Shown: positions 3,159 to 27,238 of the stretch, in pieces | Layout: each line of letters starts with the position of its first letter | How positions within the stretch are numbered: the first letter of the stretch is position 1 | From: a virus | Lineage: Duplodnaviria > Heunggongvirae > Uroviricota > Caudoviricetes | Length of the DNA: 27,854 nt | Direction: 5' to 3' (one strand) | IMG/VR virus record: IMGVR_UViG_3300032782_000004 | Notes under the pieces: generated by a model | The model's database searches: none | What the model was told of the DNA's origin: nothing | What the model saw: only the letters and a program-made list of their open reading frames with translations | Position numbers and translations under genes: made by a program

Positions 3159-3560
3159 ATGACACCCCCGAACGCTTTGCGCTTCGCCGCCGATCTTCTC
3201 GATAACTGGGCAAAGTCCGGCGACGATCAGACGCTAGTCCACGCATTCGTCGATATCTGTATGATCCACGACAGCATGTTGGACCGCATGCAAAATCACC
3301 CGCAATACGCGGGCGTCCTCAAAGAAAGAGAAAACTCCTTTCGAGCCTACTCGAAACTCACCGAAGAGCGTGACGCGGCCGTCAAGCGGGCCGAGCAGGC
3401 GGAGGTCCAGCTCGCAGGCTGCTGCGCCGCCGCTTTGGGCGCTATCGCGCCGCACGCCGAAGAAGCTCAACCGGGAGACTACGGCTACTCGGCGTCGTAC
3501 GCGGAAGTGATCAAGATCCGACGCGAGCTCGAAGCTCTCCGCGAGGGGCTCAAGCGCTGA
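3159..3560 (+). CDS. Hypothetical phage protein (133 aa, coiled-coil)
   Basis: Clean ORF in the + strand cluster with helical composition. Confidence 0.7.
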   Translation: MTPPNALRFAADLLDNWAKSGDDQTLVHAFVDICMIHDSMLDRMQNHPQYAGVLKERENSFRAYSKLTEERDAAVKRAEQAEVQLAGCCAAALGAIAPHAEEAQPGDYGYSASYAEVIKIRRELEALREGLKR

Positions 3561-3576
3561 ACCGCGCTTTTTCCGC

Positions 3577-3605
3577 TTGCGCATCTTGCCGCCTCTTGCT
3601 ATAGA
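3577..3605 (+). promoter_or_regulatory. Putative sigma70-type promoter for the Ro60 gene
   Basis: TTGCGC (3577-3582), 17 nt, then TATAGA (3600-3605) with a TG extension at 3597-3598. It sits in the only gap before ATG 3615. Confidence 0.35.
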
Positions 3606-3614
3606 TTGGTCAGG

Positions 3615-5294
3615 ATGACGCGATACGCAGCTCACGTGAACCGACGCGCGACCTCTCAGCAAGAGAGCGCTCGTGCCGATCAGGTACAAAACAACGCGGG
3701 CGGTTTCGTGTTCGCGCTCGACAAGTGGAAACGCCTGGATCGCTTTCTTATTCTTGGGGCCGATGGTGGCACTTACTACGTCAGCGAGCGCGAGTTGACG
3801 ATCGACAACGCGAACGTCGTATTGGAATGCCTCGCCGAAGACGGTCTCCGGACGGTTCGGCGCATCGTAGAAATCAGCGACACCGGCCGCGCGCCGCGGA
3901 ACGACCCGGCAATTTTCGCGCTTGCGATCGCTGCGGGTACCGGCATCGGCGTCGGCGGCTACGGCGGCACCGTCGCCGCGGCAACGCGGAAAGCAGCGCT
4001 CGAGGCGTTGCCGAAGGTTTGCCGTATCGGAACCCACTTGTTCCATTTCGCCAATGACGTCGAAGGCTTTCGGGGATGGGGCCCGGCGTTGCGCAAAGCA
4101 ATCGCAGCCTGGTACGCACAACGCGAGCCGCGCGCGCTCGCTTACGATCTCGTGAAGTACCAGTCACGCGATGGCTGGGGGCACAAGGATTTGATCAAGC
4201 TGTCGCATCCTCAAGCGCCGACGGCGGCGCACAAAGCGGCGTTGGCATGGTCTGCACGCGGCGGTACCGAAAAGATGGGCGTTTCAACGCGGAAGAAGGG
4301 CGGCGGCGAACGCGGTACGATCGCCAACCGCGATGCTCTTCCGGCGATTATCGAAGCTTTCGTCGAAATTCACGCCGATGGCGTCGACGTTCGGCGAGCT
4401 TGCGAGCTGATTCGCGCTCATCGGCTGCCACACGAATGCGTCCCGAACGAGCTCAAAAATCGACCGGAGATCTGGGACGCGCTCTCCGAGCACATGGGGC
4501 TCACGGCGCTCATGCGCAATCTCAACAAGATGACGGCGGTCGGGCTCCTGAAACCGCTCTCCGACAAAACGCATGCGATTTGCTCGAAGCTCATTGATCC
4601 CAACGCCCTGTTCAAGGCGCGCGTACACCCGCTCGCGGTGCTTATCGCCCTCAAGACCTATTCGGCGGGTCAAGGCGCTCTTGGCAAGTTGACGTGGATT
4701 CCGACCTCGGAGATCGTCGACGCGCTCGATTCGGCGTTTTACCTCGCATTCGAGGCGATCGAACCGACAAACAAGCGGCACCTGCTTGGCGTCGATTGCT
4801 CTGGCAGTATGACGGCTCCGATCGCGCGCTTGAACCTTACCGCTCGAGAAGGCGCGGCAGCGATGGCGATGGCGACGGTGCGGGCCGAAAAGCGTACACA
4901 TGTGATGGGTTTTTGCGGCCAGTTCGTGTCGCTTCCGATCACGGCAAAGCAGCGCCTCGACGATGTCGTTCGAACCGTAGGGCAGGCGAGCTTCGGCCAA
5001 ACCGATTGTGCGTTGCCGATGATTTACGCGGCGGAGCACAAGCTCGAAGTCGATTGCTTCTCCGTTTACACCGACAACGAGACGTGGTTCGGCAGCGTCC
5101 ATCCGTTTCAAGCTCTTCGGGCGTACCGCGAGCGAATGGGTATCCCGGCAAAGCTCGTGGTCGTTGGAATGGCATCGACTGGTTTCACGATCGCCGATCC
5201 GACCGATGAGGGCATGCTCGACGTAGTAGGATTCGATTCCGCTGCGCCCGCCGTCATCGCCGATTTCGCCGCCGAGCGGGAGGTATGCGGATAA
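3615..5294 (+). CDS. rsr: Ro60/Rsr TROVE-vWA RNA-binding protein
   Basis: NNAGGFVF, RFLILGADGGTYY, KYQSRDGWGHKDLIKLSHP, ALMRNLNKMT, MIDAS DCSGS, YTDNETW, DVVGFDS: characteristic Ro60 blocks along the whole length. Confidence 0.96.
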   Translation: MTRYAAHVNRRATSQQESARADQVQNNAGGFVFALDKWKRLDRFLILGADGGTYYVSERELTIDNANVVLECLAEDGLRTVRRIVEISDTGRAPRNDPAIFALAIAAGTGIGVGGYGGTVAAATRKAALEALPKVCRIGTHLFHFANDVEGFRGWGPALRKAIAAWYAQREPRALAYDLVKYQSRDGWGHKDLIKLSHPQAPTAAHKAALAWSARGGTEKMGVSTRKKGGGERGTIANRDALPAIIEAFVEIHADGVDVRRACELIRAHRLPHECVPNELKNRPEIWDALSEHMGLTALMRNLNKMTAVGLLKPLSDKTHAICSKLIDPNALFKARVHPLAVLIALKTYSAGQGALGKLTWIPTSEIVDALDSAFYLAFEAIEPTNKRHLLGVDCSGSMTAPIARLNLTAREGAAAMAMATVRAEKRTHVMGFCGQFVSLPITAKQRLDDVVRTVGQASFGQTDCALPMIYAAEHKLEVDCFSVYTDNETWFGSVHPFQALRAYRERMGIPAKLVVVGMASTGFTIADPTDEGMLDVVGFDSAAPAVIADFAAEREVCG

Positions 5295-5304
5295 ACAGAT
5301 TCGT

Positions 5305-5372
5305 GCTCGGAGCCGTTGAGGTTGGGTTACCCTTTGGCGGATATCTCCCAACTTCGTTTCTCCGCCCCGAGC
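5305..5372 (+). ncRNA. Y-RNA-like stem-loop, copy 1
   Basis: Outer stem GCTCGG/CCGAGC, inner 9-bp stem GAGGTTGGG/CCCAACTTC, pyrimidine-rich internal loop; begins 10 nt after the Ro60 stop. Confidence 0.7.
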
Positions 5373-5382
5373 CTGTATTGAG

Positions 5383-5459
5383 AAGGTCCGAGCCGTTGCG
5401 GTTGGGTTATCATGCAACGATTCCCCCAGTCGCGCTTCTCCGCCCGGGCCTTATTTTTT
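5383..5459 (+). ncRNA. Y-RNA-like stem-loop, copy 2, followed by a U tract
   Basis: Outer stem AAGGTCCG/CGGGCCTT, inner 9-bp stem GCGGTTGGG/CCCAGTCGC, contains GGTCCGA, ends TTATTTTTT. Lies 80 nt after copy 1. Confidence 0.72.
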
Positions 5460-5469
5460 CTGAGACCAG

Positions 5470-5643
5470 ATGGTGAAGAAAGAGATTTCACGTGGCGACG
5501 TTCTTCGGCTGGCGGCCGAAGCACAGCTCGATCCGAGGACGGTCAAGCGCGCCATCGAACGCGGCATCGAAAGCCTGCAAGCGGCCGTGGACAAAGATCG
5601 CCTTCGCGCCGCCGCGGCCAAGTTGAGGATCAAAGTCGAATGA
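5470..5643 (+). CDS. Small HTH-like DNA-binding protein (57 aa)
   Basis: MVKKEISRGDVLRLAAEAQLDPRTVKRAIERG...; LAAEAQLDPRTVKR fits a helix-turn-helix pattern. Not in the ORF track. Confidence 0.7.
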   Translation: MVKKEISRGDVLRLAAEAQLDPRTVKRAIERGIESLQAAVDKDRLRAAAAKLRIKVE

Positions 5644-5649
5644 ACTTCT

Positions 5650-5860
5650 CTGGAGGTAACTCCAGTTTGGCGTACCCGCGGAGCGCGGGTTCGAAACACT
5701 CTTCGAAAGAAGAGGACAACGTCCGAAGGAAGCGGACGGCACGGGCGATCAAGCGCAAGCTCGAACGTCACGGCCCCGCATTGCCTCGGAAACCGGCCTT
5801 GCGCCGGAGCCCTCGTCTCAAGACGAGGCAATCGATCGTCATCATCGTTTCGCTTTCTAC
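5650..5860 (+). ncRNA. Putative structured ncRNA ending in an anti-repeat (tracr-like)
   Basis: Perfect hairpins at 5650-5665 (GTAA loop), 5674-5690, 5699-5714 (GAAA loop), 5720-5738, 5793-5807 and 5811-5828. No credible CDS. Confidence 0.5.
5826..5860 (-). repeat. Inverted degenerate copy (anti-repeat) of the array repeat
   Basis: Minus strand GTAGAAAGCGAAACGATGATGACGATCGATTGCCT matches the 35-nt repeat at 26/35 positions with no gaps. Confidence 0.8.
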
Positions 5861-5999
5861 GAGAGCGCGAGCGCCGAGGTGCCGCGAGACATGGTTTCGA
5901 GCAATTTCGCTCGGATACGGCGACGTGGAGCCGATGATCTACGAACCGCTCGCAGACCGGCTTGCAAGTACGCGATTCGTCTACGTCGTTGGCAGGCCG

Positions 6000-6257
6000 G
6001 TCGAAAGCGATTCGACGACGACAATCGGTTGTCAGTGGAGCCGGATCAGGATCGCCGGACGGACGGTGGCGCGTCGAAAGCGATTCGACGACGACAATCG
6101 GTTGTCAAACGGACCTAGCGCAGAGTAGCACAGACTACGTGACGTGTCGAAAGCGGTTCGACGATGACAATCGGTCAGTCAGAAGCGTCTCGCGATCTCG
6201 CGAGAGTTTCGAACACATCGTGTCGAAAGCGATTCGGTGATAGCGATTGATTTGTCA
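6000..6257. CRISPR. CRISPR-like mini-array: 4 repeats, 3 unique spacers, no cas gene in window
   Basis: GTCGAAAGCGATTCGACGACGACAATCGGTTGTCA is identical at 6000-6034 and 6073-6107, variant at 6146-6181 and degenerate at 6222-6257. Spacers are 38, 38 and 40 nt. The repeats are certain; CRISPR identity is inferred. Confidence 0.65.
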
Positions 6258-6382
6258 GCGCGTCCTGCGCAGGCGATAATCTCTGTTACGTACCCCAAGT
6301 AACGCCAAAACTCGCGCGGCGGAGCATCAAAGCGCATCCGCTGCGCGGCCTCGAGCATTCGCGCACGCTGAACGTCGGTCAT
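6179..6382 (-). CDS. Small hypothetical protein (67 aa) running antisense into the array
   Basis: ATGA-coupled to the upstream - strand gene; its C-terminal third overlaps repeat 4 and spacer 3. Confidence 0.4.
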   Translation of the reverse strand: MTDVQRARMLEAAQRMRFDAPPREFWRYLGYVTEIIACAGRADKSIAITESLSTRCVRNSREIARRF

Positions 6383-7527
6383 GCGAACGTGATCGGCTGC
6401 GGCGTGACCGGCACCGCCAGCGCCAGTTGAAGCGTCTTGGTGAACAGCCCGCTCAAGAACGTTGGTGCCGGTATAGTCGACGGATCGAGCGGTGGATTCG
6501 GCGGGGGCGCCGCGACCTCGAGCGCGACGAATTCCCCGAGTGGTCCGCTAAGCTCGTCGTTGCTCGGCGTTCCGAACGTCTCGCTCAAGTTTTGTTGCGC
6601 AACCGCAAAGTAACTCTGCGGCAAATACACGAGCGGGCGGTCGATGAGCAATTGCGCTTCGTCGGTGAGCGCGACGAGAAAATCGAGTGCGGTCGCGTTC
6701 GCTTGTACCATCGGCAACGGCTCCGACAGCTCGGCGAGCGTGATTTGCCCTGCGCTGTTTCCGAAAACGCCGGTGCCGGTGAGAATGAAATTGTCGATGA
6801 CGGCGATGTCGATGCTGCCCACCGCGAGCGGCACCGCAGCCGGACGTTTGCCGGTGAGTCCGACCGTTGCCGTGAACGGGCCCGCGCCCGTCGAATCGTG
6901 ATAGATGAGCTCGACGGAGCGCGCGCCGTTTCCGGCCGGAATAGCCGGCGTCGTCGCGACCCCGTTCGTATCGAACGGCGAGGTCGAATAGACCGCCACG
7001 TTCGTCACCGGCGTCGCTACCGTCTTGAATGCGGTCGTGTTGGATGTGATCCCGGAGTACGCGGCGGTGAGTACGATCTGCGTCGCGCCGAGCACCGTTG
7101 CCACTTCGTAGAAAACGCCAGGCTGCGAAAGGAATTGGATCAGATCACCCGATTGCAAATTCGGAATTTGTGTGGCCGTCGTCGCAACGCCGAAGAGGCC
7201 GTTGGCGACGAAAAACGATCCAGGCAGCGTCACTGCTTTGCGCAGTTCGTAGGGAAGTGTCGGCGGCGTCGATGTATCGGGTTGGCAGGGAAACGGTGGA
7301 GGCGCTCCGGCGCCGGCCATGTTCAAGGTGAGCATCCGCGTAACGGTTGTTCCGCTCGGTGTCGTCACGTCGCTGTCGACGTTGAGCCCAAAAAATTGGC
7401 CGAGAACCGGATCAGTGCCCACATTGTCGTAGAGCGGCACTGCGGAAAGCGCCGCAGCAGCTTGCGTTGGCCCATAAGGGCTATTCGTCACGTCGACGGT
7501 CCAGGCGAGCACGATTTGGCTGGGCAT
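6379..7527 (-). CDS. Probable virion structural protein (beta-rich, Thr/Pro-rich)
   Basis: Long ORF, likely start MPSQIV at 7527; composition resembles phage structural proteins. No family recognised. Confidence 0.7.
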   Translation of the reverse strand: MPSQIVLAWTVDVTNSPYGPTQAAAALSAVPLYDNVGTDPVLGQFFGLNVDSDVTTPSGTTVTRMLTLNMAGAGAPPPFPCQPDTSTPPTLPYELRKAVTLPGSFFVANGLFGVATTATQIPNLQSGDLIQFLSQPGVFYEVATVLGATQIVLTAAYSGITSNTTAFKTVATPVTNVAVYSTSPFDTNGVATTPAIPAGNGARSVELIYHDSTGAGPFTATVGLTGKRPAAVPLAVGSIDIAVIDNFILTGTGVFGNSAGQITLAELSEPLPMVQANATALDFLVALTDEAQLLIDRPLVYLPQSYFAVAQQNLSETFGTPSNDELSGPLGEFVALEVAAPPPNPPLDPSTIPAPTFLSGLFTKTLQLALAVPVTPQPITFA

Positions 7528-7680
7528 GGGCTCAGAATACACCCGAAGGCGTCACGCCCTGCACCGTGCCCTCTACGTGGCTCGCAGCGCGCTTTGATCG
7601 ACGCCTCGAACGACCTGGGGTCCGGTGTCCGATCGAGCGCTCTGGAGCCGCACAAGCGCGGTGCTGGACACCGCCGCGCC

Positions 7681-7721: not shown

Positions 7722-8804
7722 GTGTCTGATAACCAGATAACCAAACACGCCGAGCACGCGCTCGCCAAAGCGCAAGAAGATCTCGTAGCGCTGGATAAGC
7801 GTGCGGAAGAAGCCGCCTATTCGGCAATCCCGGCGAACACTCGGCGGGCCTACGAGTTCGACTTGGCCTGTTTCGCGTCGTGGTGCGTCAGACACGGTGT
7901 CTCTCCGGCACCGGCCGAACCGCGAGTCGTGCGCGCCTACTTGCAGGAGCTCGCCGAGCGCGGGCGGGCCGCCGAAGACGTCCAAAGCGGCAAAGCTCGG
8001 GGCCCGATGGGGTACAGCGCGCTCATGCGCGCACTCGCGGCAATCTGCCGTAGCAATCAGAAAGCCGGGTACCCAAGTATTTGGAAAGACACGCTTATCA
8101 GATCGACACGGGAGACGCTGGCGATCACTAAAGGGAAAGCGCCGAAGCGGCAGAAGCGCGCGCTCAGCGGAACCGGCGAAGCACTTATCTTCCGCGTGTG
8201 CGACTTGATAAGCGATGATGTTCGCGGCATTAGAGACCGCGCGATGATTCTCGTCGGTTGGGCAGGCGGCGGTCGACGGCGGAGCGAAATCGCCGCCGCC
8301 CGGCGCGAGCACTTCGAAGACATCGAAGGCGGGATCAAATGGATGATCCCCCGCAGCAAGACCGACCAGGCCGGAGAGGGCTTCGTGGTGCTGTTATCTC
8401 CAGGAAAAGACGAGCGATACTGCCCGGTCCACGCACTGCGCCGCTGGCTCGCCGTTTCGAAGATCGAGCGTGGGCCGGTGTTCCGCGGCGTCGACATGGT
8501 CACCGGCGAAATCATGGCGGCAGCGATCGCCCCCGAAGGGGTAGCGCGACGCGTGCAGCACTACGTGAAATTGCTCGGCCTCGACCCTGCGGACTTTGGC
8601 GGCCATTCGTTGCGTAGCGGGTTCGTCACTACGGCGCACAAGCTCGGTCGAAAGCTCCCCGACATCATGGAATCGACTGGACATCGGACGTCGGTTCAGG
8701 TGCTCGGGTACATCCGCCGCGAAGGCCTCGTCGAAGAGTCCGCCGGCCGCGGGCTCCTGGACGAAGCGTTGTCACGTCAAAAGGGAAGCAATGTCGAAAA
8801 ATAG
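7722..8804 (+). CDS. Tyrosine recombinase/integrase (Cre/XerD-like)
   Basis: N-terminal core-binding NTRRAY..D...F..WC; catalytic RDRAMIL...RRSE, PRSKTDQ, GHSLRSG, TGH....VLGY. Confidence 0.95.
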   Translation: MSDNQITKHAEHALAKAQEDLVALDKRAEEAAYSAIPANTRRAYEFDLACFASWCVRHGVSPAPAEPRVVRAYLQELAERGRAAEDVQSGKARGPMGYSALMRALAAICRSNQKAGYPSIWKDTLIRSTRETLAITKGKAPKRQKRALSGTGEALIFRVCDLISDDVRGIRDRAMILVGWAGGGRRRSEIAAARREHFEDIEGGIKWMIPRSKTDQAGEGFVVLLSPGKDERYCPVHALRRWLAVSKIERGPVFRGVDMVTGEIMAAAIAPEGVARRVQHYVKLLGLDPADFGGHSLRSGFVTTAHKLGRKLPDIMESTGHRTSVQVLGYIRREGLVEESAGRGLLDEALSRQKGSNVEK

Positions 8805-21813: not shown

Positions 21814-24800
21814 TTACAGAGGCACCAATCGACTGTCGACGATGCTCGGATCGAAGAAAGCGAGGTGTGCAGAGGCGTCGTTTACACCGAAGCTAGCAAC
21901 TAGCTTTTTGCCATCTCGCGCAAGACCCGCGCAAAATTCAATACCTACACGGGAAAAGTAGAACAAGTCGCTGACAGCAGTAATCCGGAAGTCTCCAGTG
22001 AGCGCGACGAAGCGATGCAAATATACGCGCTCCGGCCGCCAAGCGACTTCGTGCACGAGGCATAACCACCCGTCTCCGTGTCGGATAAGTTGAGAGCCAC
22101 CCCGGAAATCGACGAGCCGAGCGGGTGCCGTGTGTCGTGCGATCTCGACGGTCCGCTCGCCGACATCGGATGAACCACCGCCGGGCGAATAGCATCGAAT
22201 GGCGATGGTCGGATCGCACCAGTACAAGAAGGATCCCGGACGGCCGGCGATCGGCATCCAGTTCTTCTGCGTCTTGTGCCCCTCGTAGTCGCGGATCGGC
22301 ATGATCGCATCGACGTGTCTCTTCTCGTCGAGCCGGCCAATGATCATCTCGCAGCGGCCATCGACGTTGTCGGAGAGGTCGCGTACCGTCGCGGACACGA
22401 AGTACGAATCGGCGCTCGACCACAAGCGACAGTCCTCGAGCCCCTCGACGGGGAACTTGCTGCGCGGCGTGCCGGTCACGTCTTCGATCAGCGTTGATCG
22501 AATCGGCCTCCAGCTTTCGTCCATTTCGACGATGTAGTTGCGCGTTCGGATGATCCCGCTGCCGTCGATTGTCGGGTACTCACCGTCAACGACGACGTAG
22601 TTGACCGTCCGAACGAGCGCCAACCGCGCCTCCTTCTCGACGAAGATCGAGGGGTTCATCGGCGCCCAACCGTCGCCCGGTTTCCAGTCGATCTCTCGAA
22701 TCTCGGCCTCGAAGAGCGTAGCCGCCGACTTCGCGTAGAACGTAAAGTTTCGGCGCGCTTCGTTTCGGATGAAATCGTCGCGATGGAGCGTGAGCTCGGT
22801 GCACGCGCGATATCCCGCTTCGCGCCGCTCCGGGATTTTACTGTGGTACCCGGTAATGGCGAGCTCGCGCTTGGCCCCGAAGTCGTAGACGTTCAATTCC
22901 ATGAAGAGCATCTCGTCTGCCGGCTTGGTTCGAATGAACGCCTCGGCGATCAAAGCGGCCGGGTCGTTCTTCCCTTTTTCGCGGTAGTACGTGGCGAGCA
23001 AATTGAGTGCTTCTGCGCGCCAAGGACGATAGTTATACGCTTCGAAGCACGCTTCGATGAAGGCCGGCTCGTCGCCGAGATCTTTCAAGCAGATCGCGAT
23101 CCCGTAGTACGAGTACCAGATCTCCTCGTCCCACCCGCCACGTTCGATGCGCTTCTTGTACCAGTAGATCGCGCGGTGCGGTCGATCGGACTCGCGATAC
23201 GAGTTCCCTAGATAGAACATGTACCGCTCGTTGTTCGGTTCTTCTTGCAAGCCATCGAGAAGTAATCGGATGTCCCGCTCCGTCTTGTCCGACTTGCTCC
23301 CGCCATCGTTGCGGTCGTCGATGGTCAAACTGGTGATCGGTGCGTATTCGACGCCTTCGACAGAGAGGTGTTCATGGGTGACTCCGACGTAGCAAGCGGG
23401 AACGTCGCGACGCAGGAGGCGCGTGTTCGGGTTCTTGAGCGTTCCGGCGTATTGGATGATCTTATATGCCGGAGCGACGAGCGCGCTTTTGTCGAGCGTC
23501 CCTTGAAGCACCATGTCGGCGTCGATGAGCAACGCGTAATCCCAATCGGGGACAGAGCGCGCGACGCGGAGGCCCTCGTTTCGGCCGTGAGCAAAGTTTT
23601 TGAACTCGATCCGTTCGAGCTTCCCCGGTAGCGGATACTGTTCGAAAAACTTCGTGATCAGCTCGGCCGTGTTGTCGTCCGATCGGCTGTCGATCGAAAT
23701 GGCCCAAGCGTCGATGAACGGGAGCGCGGACGTCAAACAGCGTTCGATAATCTTGCTCTCGTTTCGAACATTCATCACGAGACAGACACGCGGGATCTCG
23801 GGGAGACGTTTCGGCCGCTCGATCGCTTTTTCGAAGTCGATGATGCTGTCATCGTGGTCGGCTTTGTACCAGTCGAAGCGGAAGCCGGCGCGTTCCATTC
23901 GAGCCCAGTTGTTGACCTCCCAGGTCAACGAAACGGGATCGGCATGGAGCGTAGCGTTCAATGCGACGAGATCGCGTATTCGGTTCCTATCGACGAGCAA
24001 AAATCCTCCGCAGAACCGCCAATGCACGACATCGTCTGTCAATGGCGGCGCTTCCGCCGCTGCGCCCCAACATCCTGGAGCGAGCACGCATCCCGCCGGA
24101 GGGTGTAGCGCTCGCAAGCGTTTCCGAAAAGACTCCTCGTCGCGGACGATCTTCATGATACCGAAGTCGATCCAAGCGAAATGCGTCGACACGTTATCGA
24201 GCGAGCGGGCAAGGTCAAGCAGCTCTATCTTCGAATTTTGGAGCAATAGGAAATCGCGCGTGTCCTTCTCGAGTGTGCGATGCGCCGGAAGCGTCAGTTC
24301 GCGTCCTTCGGCCCATTTGAATGGCCATAGATCTCCGAGCCGCATCGGGACGATCTGGACATTCTCGCGCCACCAAGCTCGATCCATGAGCCGTTCATCT
24401 AGAAACACCAAGATCGGAGCGCCGCATTTAGCAAGCCGTTCGAATTGTCGGAACTGCTCGTCCTCGTCGATGCGCCGGTCTTCCAATCGAAAAAATCCTG
24501 TGACGAGCGTTACTTTCGTCGGTCGCGCTACGATCCAATCATGAACGGCCTTTGGATTGCCTTGAAGAATCGTTTTCGTCATTTCCGGCGCTACAGCAGC
24601 GGTCAGCCCGACTTTTCTAGCTCGATCGAGCACATCGTCGCGTTTGAACCATGAGACGCCCGGGTACTGCCATTCTCGAAAATCGGCGCCATGTCGAGCG
24701 CTCCCCGGTGAACCGAATTCATTGCCTTCAGCGAGCCGTATCGAAGCGGCGAGCACGCCTTCTGGTGCGAGCTGTTCTCTAGCCGCGACAAAAAACTCGT

Positions 24801-25197
24801 CGAGCTGACTGTCCGAGGCGTGGCTCAAGATCGAGTGCGAAATGATGAAATCGAACTTCCAACCCAATCCGGTGCGAAAGTCCGCGCGGGGAGAAAATTG
24901 CGGTCGTTTCGCCACGACAGTCGGCGCGGCCTCGGATGCCCTCAACGTCGACTGGATGAGCCACGAGTTCGGATCGATGCCGAAGTAGTTGCCGGCATCG
25001 AGGTATTGCATGATCGGAAAGCCGGCGACCAGAGCGCCGCATCCTATTTCGAGCACGCGATGATGCGGCTTGCAGCCGAGATCTTTTAAGATCTCGAGCT
25101 GCGCTAGACCTTCTTCAGGGAGCGTGCAAACGTAGCTGACGGCATCGGCGTTCTCGGGGCTAAACGGGAGCGGCTTCACGGTCATTATCGACCCCAT
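21814..25197 (-). CDS. Multidomain glycosylation protein: SAM methyltransferase + HtrL/WlaTC-like GT + GT2 + TPR + beta-propeller glycosidase-like domain
   Basis: VLEIGCG; VTLVTGFF...HFAWIDFG; CLVMNVRNE...IDSRSDDNT...LLIDAD; TPR-like YMFYLGNSY/AIYWYKKR; MNPSI, GLEDCRL, QKNWMP, EFCAGL. Confidence 0.85.
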   Translation of the reverse strand: MGSIMTVKPLPFSPENADAVSYVCTLPEEGLAQLEILKDLGCKPHHRVLEIGCGALVAGFPIMQYLDAGNYFGIDPNSWLIQSTLRASEAAPTVVAKRPQFSPRADFRTGLGWKFDFIISHSILSHASDSQLDEFFVAAREQLAPEGVLAASIRLAEGNEFGSPGSARHGADFREWQYPGVSWFKRDDVLDRARKVGLTAAVAPEMTKTILQGNPKAVHDWIVARPTKVTLVTGFFRLEDRRIDEDEQFRQFERLAKCGAPILVFLDERLMDRAWWRENVQIVPMRLGDLWPFKWAEGRELTLPAHRTLEKDTRDFLLLQNSKIELLDLARSLDNVSTHFAWIDFGIMKIVRDEESFRKRLRALHPPAGCVLAPGCWGAAAEAPPLTDDVVHWRFCGGFLLVDRNRIRDLVALNATLHADPVSLTWEVNNWARMERAGFRFDWYKADHDDSIIDFEKAIERPKRLPEIPRVCLVMNVRNESKIIERCLTSALPFIDAWAISIDSRSDDNTAELITKFFEQYPLPGKLERIEFKNFAHGRNEGLRVARSVPDWDYALLIDADMVLQGTLDKSALVAPAYKIIQYAGTLKNPNTRLLRRDVPACYVGVTHEHLSVEGVEYAPITSLTIDDRNDGGSKSDKTERDIRLLLDGLQEEPNNERYMFYLGNSYRESDRPHRAIYWYKKRIERGGWDEEIWYSYYGIAICLKDLGDEPAFIEACFEAYNYRPWRAEALNLLATYYREKGKNDPAALIAEAFIRTKPADEMLFMELNVYDFGAKRELAITGYHSKIPERREAGYRACTELTLHRDDFIRNEARRNFTFYAKSAATLFEAEIREIDWKPGDGWAPMNPSIFVEKEARLALVRTVNYVVVDGEYPTIDGSGIIRTRNYIVEMDESWRPIRSTLIEDVTGTPRSKFPVEGLEDCRLWSSADSYFVSATVRDLSDNVDGRCEMIIGRLDEKRHVDAIMPIRDYEGHKTQKNWMPIAGRPGSFLYWCDPTIAIRCYSPGGGSSDVGERTVEIARHTAPARLVDFRGGSQLIRHGDGWLCLVHEVAWRPERVYLHRFVALTGDFRITAVSDLFYFSRVGIEFCAGLARDGKKLVASFGVNDASAHLAFFDPSIVDSRLVPL

Positions 25198-25198
25198 G

Positions 25199-26434
25199 CT
25201 ACCCTAATTCTTTTTCGAGCGACATAGTCGATTTGCGTGTCAGGATCGTTAGCCCGTTGTTGTTGCTCAGTCGATTTTCTAGGCGCCAATCCGAATGCGC
25301 GTCTAGGAACTCTACGATCGCCGGCCATAAACCGAGCCCGCTCTCGGACTCGTCCCGACTGCCGTAAGTCGTTGTATCGTGCATGAGGATGTGCTTACGT
25401 ACTTTCGACTCATGTACAAATAACTCGCATCGGAGCTGAGCGTAGTTGTGTATCGTGTCGATGAACAATAGATCTGTTTTTTCGATGCTAGCCGCTAAGG
25501 CGCTTTCGACGCAGAATCGAAAATCGATTTTCGCCGCCGCGGCGATCTCGCTTAACTCCCGCATATCCAAATGGCGGATATCGTAACTCCGCATCGACTT
25601 CGGACGCCCGCGCAGTAACCCCCATGTAGATCTGCCCGCGCCGAATTCCGTGACGTGCGCGCACTTGCTCGCGTACATCGACAGAACCGAGATATGCTCG
25701 TTAATGTCGGACGGCTCGATCTCACACTGATGATACTGCCTTTCGATTTTGCCCAGTGCAGTGCATATCTTGTTGAGCCCCGAATCCCACCGAATGCGAT
25801 CGCTTTCTGTTATCGCGTCGAACTCGTGCAAACTAGATCCGCTGACGGCCCCCTTATGCCACACCCCCATGCCGTGCACAGTCCGCTGCGCGAATCCGGC
25901 CCATCTTAGTAGCCAGTAGATCCAATCGTCGCCGCAGTGGATAAGAAGCTCGGAAGGTATAGGGAATGCGATCGACACGGCCTCCCTGGACATCGCGAAG
26001 AAGGCCCCGTGTACATAGTCTGTAGCGGTCGAGTCCGCGGACGGCTCTAGTGGCGCGTAGATCTCGTTTTCGTTGAGTAGTCTGGCGATCCAATATTCTC
26101 TTTGTTCCGCGCTATCGCAGCGCATCAGTAACGACTTCGTCCAATTCGGCGATGCGATCAGATCGGCGTTCGCTAGAACTAGTACGTCGTGTTCTGAGGC
26201 CAGAAAGATTTCCGCCAACTGATTCCATGCCGGATTCACGTAGACGTTCACGTCGTTGCGCACCACAGAGATCGAAGCGCCCATCTCGCGTAAAACCGAT
26301 TTAACATCGGCTGTCGCGCCGTTTTCGATCGCAACCACATGCGTCTCCGGGCTTAAGAAAGATCGAATTGCGCTCAACAGCAATTCACGCGGTTCAGCGA
26401 AGCAAGGCACCCCCACCATAATTCTGGCAGTCAT
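25199..26434 (-). CDS. GT2-like glycosyltransferase fused to a class I SAM methyltransferase
   Basis: MTARIMVGVPCF...IENGA...NPAWN...NAD...GDDW, then SDINEH...EFGAGRST...DLLFIDTIHNY...MHDT. ATG 26434 has an ATGA overlap with an alternative-frame stop. Confidence 0.75.
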   Translation of the reverse strand: MTARIMVGVPCFAEPRELLLSAIRSFLSPETHVVAIENGATADVKSVLREMGASISVVRNDVNVYVNPAWNQLAEIFLASEHDVLVLANADLIASPNWTKSLLMRCDSAEQREYWIARLLNENEIYAPLEPSADSTATDYVHGAFFAMSREAVSIAFPIPSELLIHCGDDWIYWLLRWAGFAQRTVHGMGVWHKGAVSGSSLHEFDAITESDRIRWDSGLNKICTALGKIERQYHQCEIEPSDINEHISVLSMYASKCAHVTEFGAGRSTWGLLRGRPKSMRSYDIRHLDMRELSEIAAAAKIDFRFCVESALAASIEKTDLLFIDTIHNYAQLRCELFVHESKVRKHILMHDTTTYGSRDESESGLGLWPAIVEFLDAHSDWRLENRLSNNNGLTILTRKSTMSLEKELG

Positions 26435-27238
26435 TTTGCCGCCTCCATAGCTCTGTGTGCGGTGTTCAAGAACCTGTCCTCTGACATGTTTGTGGGGCAA
26501 GCCTCTGCACGCTTCAAGAGCAGCGCGTACACGTCGGGATCGAGCGCGCACTTCTCGGTCGCATGTACATCGAACACTCGCTTTCGGTCGGAGCGACCAG
26601 CCGTCTGGGATCCGCCCGTCAAACGGCTTAGAGTAGGTTTCCGAGTCAGGCATACCGCCCCACTTCTGCACGAAATAAAGCCGAGATTGTTCGATCGCGA
26701 CGGCCATCCAGTCGGGGCGCCCGAGAGCGTTGAAAGTCGTCCAACAGCCGGCATGTTGCACCGGCTCGGAGCAATTCCAAGTGCCGCTCACACCGGCGCG
26801 CACGAGACGGACAGCGTAGTCCGAGTCTTCGTAGTACCCGGGCCAAAAGTTTTCGTCGTAGAACCCGACTGTTTGCGTGCACTCCGGCGTCTGCCCGAAA
26901 AGGCACCAGCCGTTTCCAACAATTCGATGAGTCTCGAGATCACGTGTCATTTCCTCGAAGGTGCGCTCGCCGAGGACGACGTCGTCGTTCGCGATGACAA
27001 TCGGTTCGCCGAGCTCGAGCATCTTGTTCCAAGACGCTGCAACGCCGATATTCTCATCGGGGATGACGGCGTGGATCTTCGAGCGCCACGGACGATTTGG
27101 AAGCGATGACAGATCGCCGCCGTTGAACACGATCACGTAGCCGCTCGGCGCCAACGATCCGCGTTCGGCCGATTCGATCAGACGGACGAGCCCCTCGAAA
27201 TTGACGAGAACCGGAACGCCGAGCTTCACCGGTCGCAA
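26431..27238 (-). CDS. GT2-family glycosyltransferase (as sequenced, reads through in frame into the next gene)
   Basis: NIGVAASWN, ANDDV, VGFYDENFWPGYYEDSDY. The ORF track gives one 679-aa ORF, 25199-27238. Confidence 0.75.

Follow-up and report, generated by a model that had tools for sequence, protein, structure and literature searches.

The repeat array described here belongs to a soil phage, not yet cultured, with a genome of about 91 kb, and is probably a genuine phage-borne CRISPR array that lacks cas genes and is served by the Cas proteins of its host. It has repeat-spacer architecture, its spacers turn over between close relatives, it is polar, and no cas gene is recognizable in the window (the whole stretch of 27,854 nucleotides that was analysed) and about 73 kb of the phage. 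The features concerned are listed in Table 1.

Genes in the window, which has about 60% G+C, specify a Dam-type methyltransferase, a split family A DNA polymerase, collagen-like tail fibres, a GH16 glycosidase, large glycosyltransferases and, at 7722-8804, an integrase-like protein. The DNA polymerase is at most 26% identical to those of cultured phages. It is encoded by two overlapping ORFs (3-1797 of the window, plus strand; 14451-17050 in L036), one for a 573-aa UDG-like/PolA N-terminal part and the other for a 320-aa PolA C-terminal part. On the minus strand at 21814-27238 a 1127-aa protein (methyltransferase, GT2 glycosyltransferase and TPR) is adjacent to a 679-aa protein (GT2); in a variant contig these large proteins give way to an HtrL_YibB protein, and so this part of the genome looks like a variable glycosylation module. 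A 462-aa protein encoded at 2940-4328 of L036 has about 35 tandem SQL[RWGE] tetrapeptides ahead of a globular C-terminal domain that belongs to no known family.

Table 1. Array, leader, inverted copy and Ro60-linked features, with positions in the window
Feature	Position	Strand	Remarks
Phage Ro60 (Rsr) gene	3606-5294	+	Pfam TROVE 1.4e-38, vWA_Ro60 8.5e-68
Candidate Y RNAs, two tandem stem-loops of ~70 nt	5305-5377, 5387-5450	+	Separate from the array; directly after the Ro60 stop
Inverted degenerate repeat copy	5829-5861	+	Complementary to the repeat; 139 nt upstream of Repeat 1
Leader-like region	5862-5999	+	Between the inverted repeat copy and Repeat 1
Repeat 1	6000-6035	+	36 nt, consensus; two hairpins
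Spacer 1	6036-6072	+	37 nt; in window-type array only
Repeat 2	6073-6108	+	36 nt; A replaces G as last base
Spacer 2	6109-6145	+	37 nt; in window-type array only
Repeat 3	6146-6182	+	37 nt; hairpin 1 intact, hairpin 2 broken by 1-nt insertion and substitutions
Spacer 3	6183-6221	+	39 nt, trailer end; L014 copy identical; has an 8-bp palindrome
Terminal degenerate repeat	6222-6258	+	Initial 15 nt intact; hairpin 1 kept via two G-U pairs; 3′ half decayed

Repeats, spacers and spacer turnover

A repeat search of the window finds four direct repeats at 6000-6258, their starts separated by 73, 73 and 76 nt, and Tandem Repeats Finder gives the same four-copy array (period 73, score 208); four decaying repeats were what a sequence-only reading of this DNA had reported. 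The repeat length was set to 36 nt because every one of the 24 units seen ends in a purine. By that definition the sole difference between the first two repeats is their last base, G in one and A in the other, the third has three substitutions and a 1-nt insertion, and the fourth has eight substitutions and one insertion, with the decay increasing rightward. A pair of identical 35-mers at fixed spacing is far beyond chance. The spacers between them, 37, 37 and 39 nt long, have no mutual similarity; the lengths of 38, 38 and 40 nt originally given for them, with the statement that they are unrelated, are correct for a repeat taken as 35 nt. Across the arrays compared the repeat period is 72-76, the first two repeats of the window differ at one position or none, and the counterpart of Repeat 3 in one of the relatives (L014 6882-6917) is nearly intact.

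The repeats have the potential to form two hairpins each, GUCGAA-AGCGA-UUCGAC and GAC(GAC)AA...UUGUC, the second of which (5 bp with a 4-nt loop) ends two bases ahead of each spacer. The predicted fold of the plus strand is -13.3 kcal/mol (z = -2.5) and that of the minus strand -9.9 (z = -1.5). All repeat polymorphisms in the window, L014 and L032 are in hairpin loops or yield G-U pairs, and the 3′ end of the repeat is [G/A]TTGTCA[G/A]. The variants with G or A at positions 28 and 36 are grouped in blocks along the arrays of these three.

The array region is non-coding. Codon-position G+C signal is absent across 5644-6378, the ORFs listed over the array region (5412-6128, 5879-6118 and 5962-6240) have no support from it, and a Pfam scan of the first of them gave no match. 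In public assemblies automatic callers have placed ORFs of 130-233 aa over the array, and these are artefacts of the repeat structure.

Relatives were found by way of their Ro60 protein and are near-identical phages from a single study, in three of its metagenomes. Over 5200-6450 L013 does not differ from the window. L014, with flanks 96% identical to those of the window, has ten copies of the window repeat, and L032, from a metagenome scan with the repeat core, has twelve full repeats, a 183-nt insert and a terminal degenerate repeat. Within flanks that are 96-100% identical there are accordingly 4 copies of the repeat in the window and L013, 10 in L014 and 13 in L032, and the spacers that they enclose (3, 9 and 11-12, respectively) are almost all different. 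The distinct spacers, about 22 over the three arrays, are 36 nt (8), 37 nt (4), 39 nt (5) or 40 nt (5) long and of no other length, their mean G+C is 0.64, and the best chance overlap between any two of the 22 has a median of 15 nt. The length distribution in the window, L014 and L032 is bimodal, 36-37 and 39-40 nt, with zero at 38. The insert in L032 (939-1121, reverse strand) is non-repeat sequence with a 9-bp GC-rich inverted repeat and stands in place of the trailer-end spacer. A hairpin in this insert resembles a terminator by eye but fell short of the criteria of the terminator scan.

These are the properties of a CRISPR array: near-identical direct repeats, within the range of 23-55 nt, are regularly spaced and alternate with unique spacers of similar length, and spacer content varies among close relatives while repeats and flanks are constant. 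The sequence-only reading had called the array CRISPR-like, a view incompatible with spacers conserved in sequence and order among relatives, and that nearly all of them differ between such similar flanks upholds it. The same comparison makes it very improbable that the repeats act as DNA, whether as replication iterons, as a partition site or as a protein-bound operator array, for which an inverted copy of the repeat present upstream (Table 1) would be an autoregulatory site. Direct repeats with one inverted copy are a typical layout for such elements, and integrase-like and replication genes are nearby. However, iterons have fixed spacing, conserved inter-repeat DNA and stable copy number, and here the inter-repeat DNA is replaced wholesale by unrelated sequences of 36-40 nt and copy number is 4, 10 or 13 among almost identical genomes; furthermore, the terminal-repeat hairpin is kept by means of G-U pairs, which are relevant only in RNA.

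The arrays are also polar. At the right end the window, L014 and L032 all have the same degenerate repeat, and the trailer-end spacer is common to the window and L014, while the left ends are wholly different. There is one exception to the polarity: an internal spacer is common to L014 and L032 and different spacers come after it in each, and so strict addition at the leader end is insufficient. Spacer order must also owe something to recombination between arrays, to a favoured protospacer having been acquired more than once, or to chimeric assembly paths. It needs to be kept in mind that the arrays are from metagenome assemblies and that the order of their spacers could be partly an assembly artefact. 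Two array lengths recur in independent assemblies: L013 shares with two ENA contigs a distance of 1085 nt between the Ro60 stop and the gene that follows, and L014 shares one of 1527 nt with a further ENA contig.

The variable left end, together with the conserved 139-nt region next to it, puts the leader on the left, where it had been placed before any relatives were compared, and the trailer-end spacer shared with L014 is in keeping with this. In the leader-like region, which is not A+T-rich, the window and L014 have about 98% identity, with 7 differences over the 360 nt of 5640-5999. A consensus scan detected no sigma-70-like promoter in this region, and promoter and terminator scans of the locus gave nothing usable, the consensus in both cases being one made for sigma-70 hosts. 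The plus-strand transcription that had been proposed along with the leader is suggested, rather than established, by the better plus-strand fold of the repeat, by the confinement of repeat polymorphisms to loops and G-U pairs, and by the two G-U pairs of the terminal repeat, which in minus-strand RNA would be A-C mismatches.

The inverted repeat copy and the search for cas genes, targets and hosts

The earlier description of the locus was right about repeats and spacers and overlooked three things: the hairpins of the repeat, the Ro60 and Y-RNA context, and the inverted copy. Bases complementary to the repeat number 26 of 33 in that copy (77-79% pairing over 31-33 nt), and G-U pairs beyond these Watson-Crick ones come to 1 on the plus strand and 3 on the minus strand of the 33 positions. 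The RNA duplex that it could form with any of the repeats is predicted at -38.6 kcal/mol for either strand, against -13.8 +/- 3.5 for shuffles, and is about 20 kcal/mol better than the two RNAs folded apart. The copy is without the repeat's own first hairpin and so would be free to pair with the repeat; several hairpins lie directly upstream of it, at 5698-5828. In L014 it is identical and at the same distance from the array. An ability to pair with the repeat is what defines the anti-repeat of a tracrRNA, and by these predictions the inverted copy looks like one.

This similarity raises the possibility of an autonomous phage guide-RNA system, with 5829-5861 as a tracrRNA-like anti-repeat and an unrecognized phage protein as effector, which we consider unlikely, though it is the foremost of the alternatives. 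The extent of complementarity and the strength of the predicted duplex relative to shuffles argue for it, as do the conservation of the copy's place and sequence in L014, its lack of the first hairpin and the presence of hairpins directly upstream, an arrangement that type V tracrRNAs share. The repeat was, moreover, found only in these phage contigs and in no cellular genome or other metagenome record of the collections searched. The effector would then be encoded in the remaining approximately 18 of the 91 kb or be among the phage proteins of no known family. In a variant of the proposal the array would be coupled to the adjacent Ro60/Y-RNA particle, for instance through crRNA 3′ trimming by recruited PNPase. 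On the other side, Pfam tables, PADLOC and PHROGs reveal no Cas9, Cas12 or TnpB-like protein in 73 kb, a very basic 577-aa phage protein proves to be arginine-rich low-complexity sequence plus a hydrophobic segment, and there is neither an Rfam tracrRNA match nor, in the scans with a sigma-70 consensus, a promoter or terminator bounding a separate RNA. The inverted copy itself may be a mere decayed repeat left by a rearrangement.

The search for cas genes was broader than the effectors just named. Pfam detects no cas domains among the large ORFs of the 27.9-kb window, and precomputed Pfam gene tables for a 68-kb contig and 91-kb contigs, which cover about 73 of the 91 kb of the phage, contain no Cas families. 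PADLOC and PHROGs found no Cas protein among the ten largest unassigned proteins; one is helicase/primase-like and another is a tail fibre. There is thus no cas locus adjoining the array in the window and none recognized in the 73 kb covered, within which the initial designation of the array as an orphan holds and from which the phage is likely cas-less.

Rfam release 15, which includes CRISPR-DR models, has no match to the repeat at gathering scores for the whole window or at E values up to 10 for 5200-6450, and in neither search did any family appear at all, be it a CRISPR repeat, a tracrRNA or a Y RNA; as far as Rfam shows, then, the repeat is of no known family, as had been thought from its sequence. 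A full-text search of the literature for the repeat sequence yielded no match. In IMG/VR the exact repeat is absent, as is either half of it in array geometry. A scan of 241 million JGI metagenome records with the repeat core returned two of these phage contigs and no other record. Nor was a host array carrying the repeat found: in 185,579 species genomes, a pattern in which the first hairpin occurs twice at the spacing of an array gave 16 matches, all to unrelated MITE-like or tandem repeats, and the repeat is absent, with up to 3 mismatches allowed, from 401 sampled Actinomycetota genomes.

Protospacers proved equally elusive. None had been seen in the window by eye, and there is likewise none for any of the spacers in the phage's own sequence, of which about 70 kb was compared, or in its relatives. 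Matches of the L014 and L032 arrays to INPHARED phages and of the window array to PLSDB plasmids are at chance level (E 0.3-0.7), and three spacer cores, among them a 24-nt core of Spacer 1, have no match in IMG/VR.

Repeats with no cas genes nearby and no protospacer matches might instead be an RNA decoy, an anti-CRISPR of the Racr type whose repeats soak up host Cas6 or effector subunits and whose spacers have no targeting role. Solitary repeats or mini-arrays of phages that mimic host repeats do inhibit CRISPR-Cas (PMC10651486). A decoy needs repeats, however; it does not need fast-changing spacers held to a narrow range of lengths, nor polarity and a conserved leader, and the scans of genomes and metagenomes gave no host repeat that it could imitate. 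In view of the spacer turnover it is less likely than an array served by the host, and we give it a low probability, somewhat below that of an autonomous system.

The Ro60 neighbourhood

The array starts 0.7 kb downstream of the Ro60 gene and on the same strand. Between the Ro60 stop and the next clear gene (6379-7542, minus strand) are 1,085 nt, and the DNA of this interval (5295-6378) has no match among cultured phages. Its sole coding signal is a 57-aa ORF at 5470-5643. The small protein (plus strand; 6824-6997 in L011) is conserved, alpha-helical-looking and also present in L011, which is array-less; gene tables list no Pfam family for it.

Ro-like proteins are already known in phages and occur widely in cultured actinophages; 360 records of cultured phages carry the annotation 'Ro-like RNA binding protein'. 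For the present one, the two tandem stem-loops directly after its stop codon are candidate Y RNAs. Their hairpins have 19 pairs with 97.9% of cells paired, as against at most 51% in slid controls, and 5 of the pairs have compensatory changes. They are bulged, have no Rfam match, and recur in L011 (6666-6735 and 6743-6806) and L012 (3900-3968), whose Ro60 proteins are 72-74% identical to that of the window.

A reading in which the neighbouring Ro60 has the repeats themselves as its RNA partners or substrates, the array being a series of Y-RNA-like modules, draws on the short distance and common strand of the two, and is nevertheless hardly tenable. The covarying hairpins are the better Y RNA candidates, and both L011 and L012 have Ro60 with such hairpins. 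In L011 the order of genes around Ro60 is that of the window, and both hairpins are present along with the small protein, the minus-strand gene and the integrase, yet there is no array, which makes the array a separate module. Ten more distant viral contigs that encode Ro60 likewise have no array beside it. Modules of structured RNA would, besides, not contain freely replaceable inserts of 36-40 nt. The adjacency of the array to Ro60 is probably incidental. In comparison with the bacterial and phage modules of Ro60 (Rsr) and Y RNA, the neighbouring Ro60 orthologue with its two candidate Y RNAs is alike, whereas the array is a difference, missing as it is from the Ro60 loci of relatives.

In more distant viral contigs that encode Ro60 (L001, L003, L009 and L010) tRNA genes cluster directly upstream of it. 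In L003 two 124-nt 'tRNA' matches with long insertions (3552-3675 and 3767-3891) look like tRNA-like Y RNAs of the YrlA type. In the window ARAGORN finds neither tRNA nor tmRNA. The repeats were considered as Y-RNA or tRNA-like modules of Ro60 and rejected as such, given the separate Y-like hairpins and the hypervariable spacers.

Proposed function and relation to known systems

For the favoured explanation, a cas-less array that depends on the host, the following course of events can be envisaged. The array would be transcribed from its leader on the plus strand, and the pre-crRNA cut, loaded and used by host Cas proteins. New spacers might be gained while the phage DNA sits in a cell bearing Cas1-Cas2, perhaps as a prophage; alternatively, arrays might swap spacers through recombination. 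The targets of the guides would be competing phages or other mobile elements, and the same use of host Cas in conflict between elements has been described for virus-borne mini-arrays (PMC6858448).

Arrays of this kind show phages using CRISPR guides against each other. Most of those described are from archaeal viruses, gut or clostridial prophages, or huge phages, with arrays in Clostridioides prophages, cyanophage N-1 and huge phages among the examples. The present array is from a soil phage of about 90 kb that is unrelated to cultured phages, and within one study its spacers turn over from sample to sample. Should there be a matching host system, the array would tie this uncultured lineage directly to its host. 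Otherwise the locus would point to an unrecognized effector, for which the conserved anti-repeat-like element is a testable lead.

The closest parallel is with the cas-less mini-arrays of archaeal viruses, which share a few to a dozen spacers, a leader, no adjacent cas genes, spacer content that varies among close viruses and presumed use of host Cas (PMC6858448). In contrast to what is found here in the collections searched, their described repeats match host arrays and many of their spacers match related viruses; the inverted repeat copy upstream is a further difference. Racrs are also phage-encoded CRISPR repeats without cas genes, but they are single repeats or very short arrays mimicking a known host repeat, whereas here there are up to 13 repeats, spacer turnover and a conserved leader (PMC10651486).

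With respect to CRISPR type, there are resemblances in two directions. Repeats of 36 nt with spacers of 36-40 nt resemble Cas6-processed class 1 arrays (types I-A, I-B, I-D and III), among them the type III-A direct-repeat locus of Mycobacterium tuberculosis with repeats of 36-37 nt and spacers of 35-41 nt. Both lengths and the degeneration of the terminal repeat in its 3′ half are alike, yet there is no sequence similarity and no Cas6 or effector genes are recognized here, and in place of the usual ATTGAAAC/G-like 8-nt tag the repeat ends [G/A]TTGTCA[G/A]. A hairpin directly ahead of each spacer and a complementary copy upstream would, going by predicted structure, suit a guide of type V or type II and its tracrRNA as well. 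The tracrRNA-dependent loci (type II, and types V-B, E, F, G and K) have 36-nt repeats and nearby an imperfect complement of nearly the whole repeat, as here; they differ in having a Cas9 or Cas12 gene, of which none is recognized in about 73 kb of the phage, and Rfam gives no tracrRNA match for the present locus. Type II spacers are usually about 30 nt, shorter than those of 36-40 nt here, while the second repeat hairpin, with its short stem and small loop so near the spacer, is reminiscent of type V guides. Three features of the present array are unusual: its repeat family, which was met in this phage lineage alone, spacer turnover that is visible between samples, and an anti-repeat-like element.
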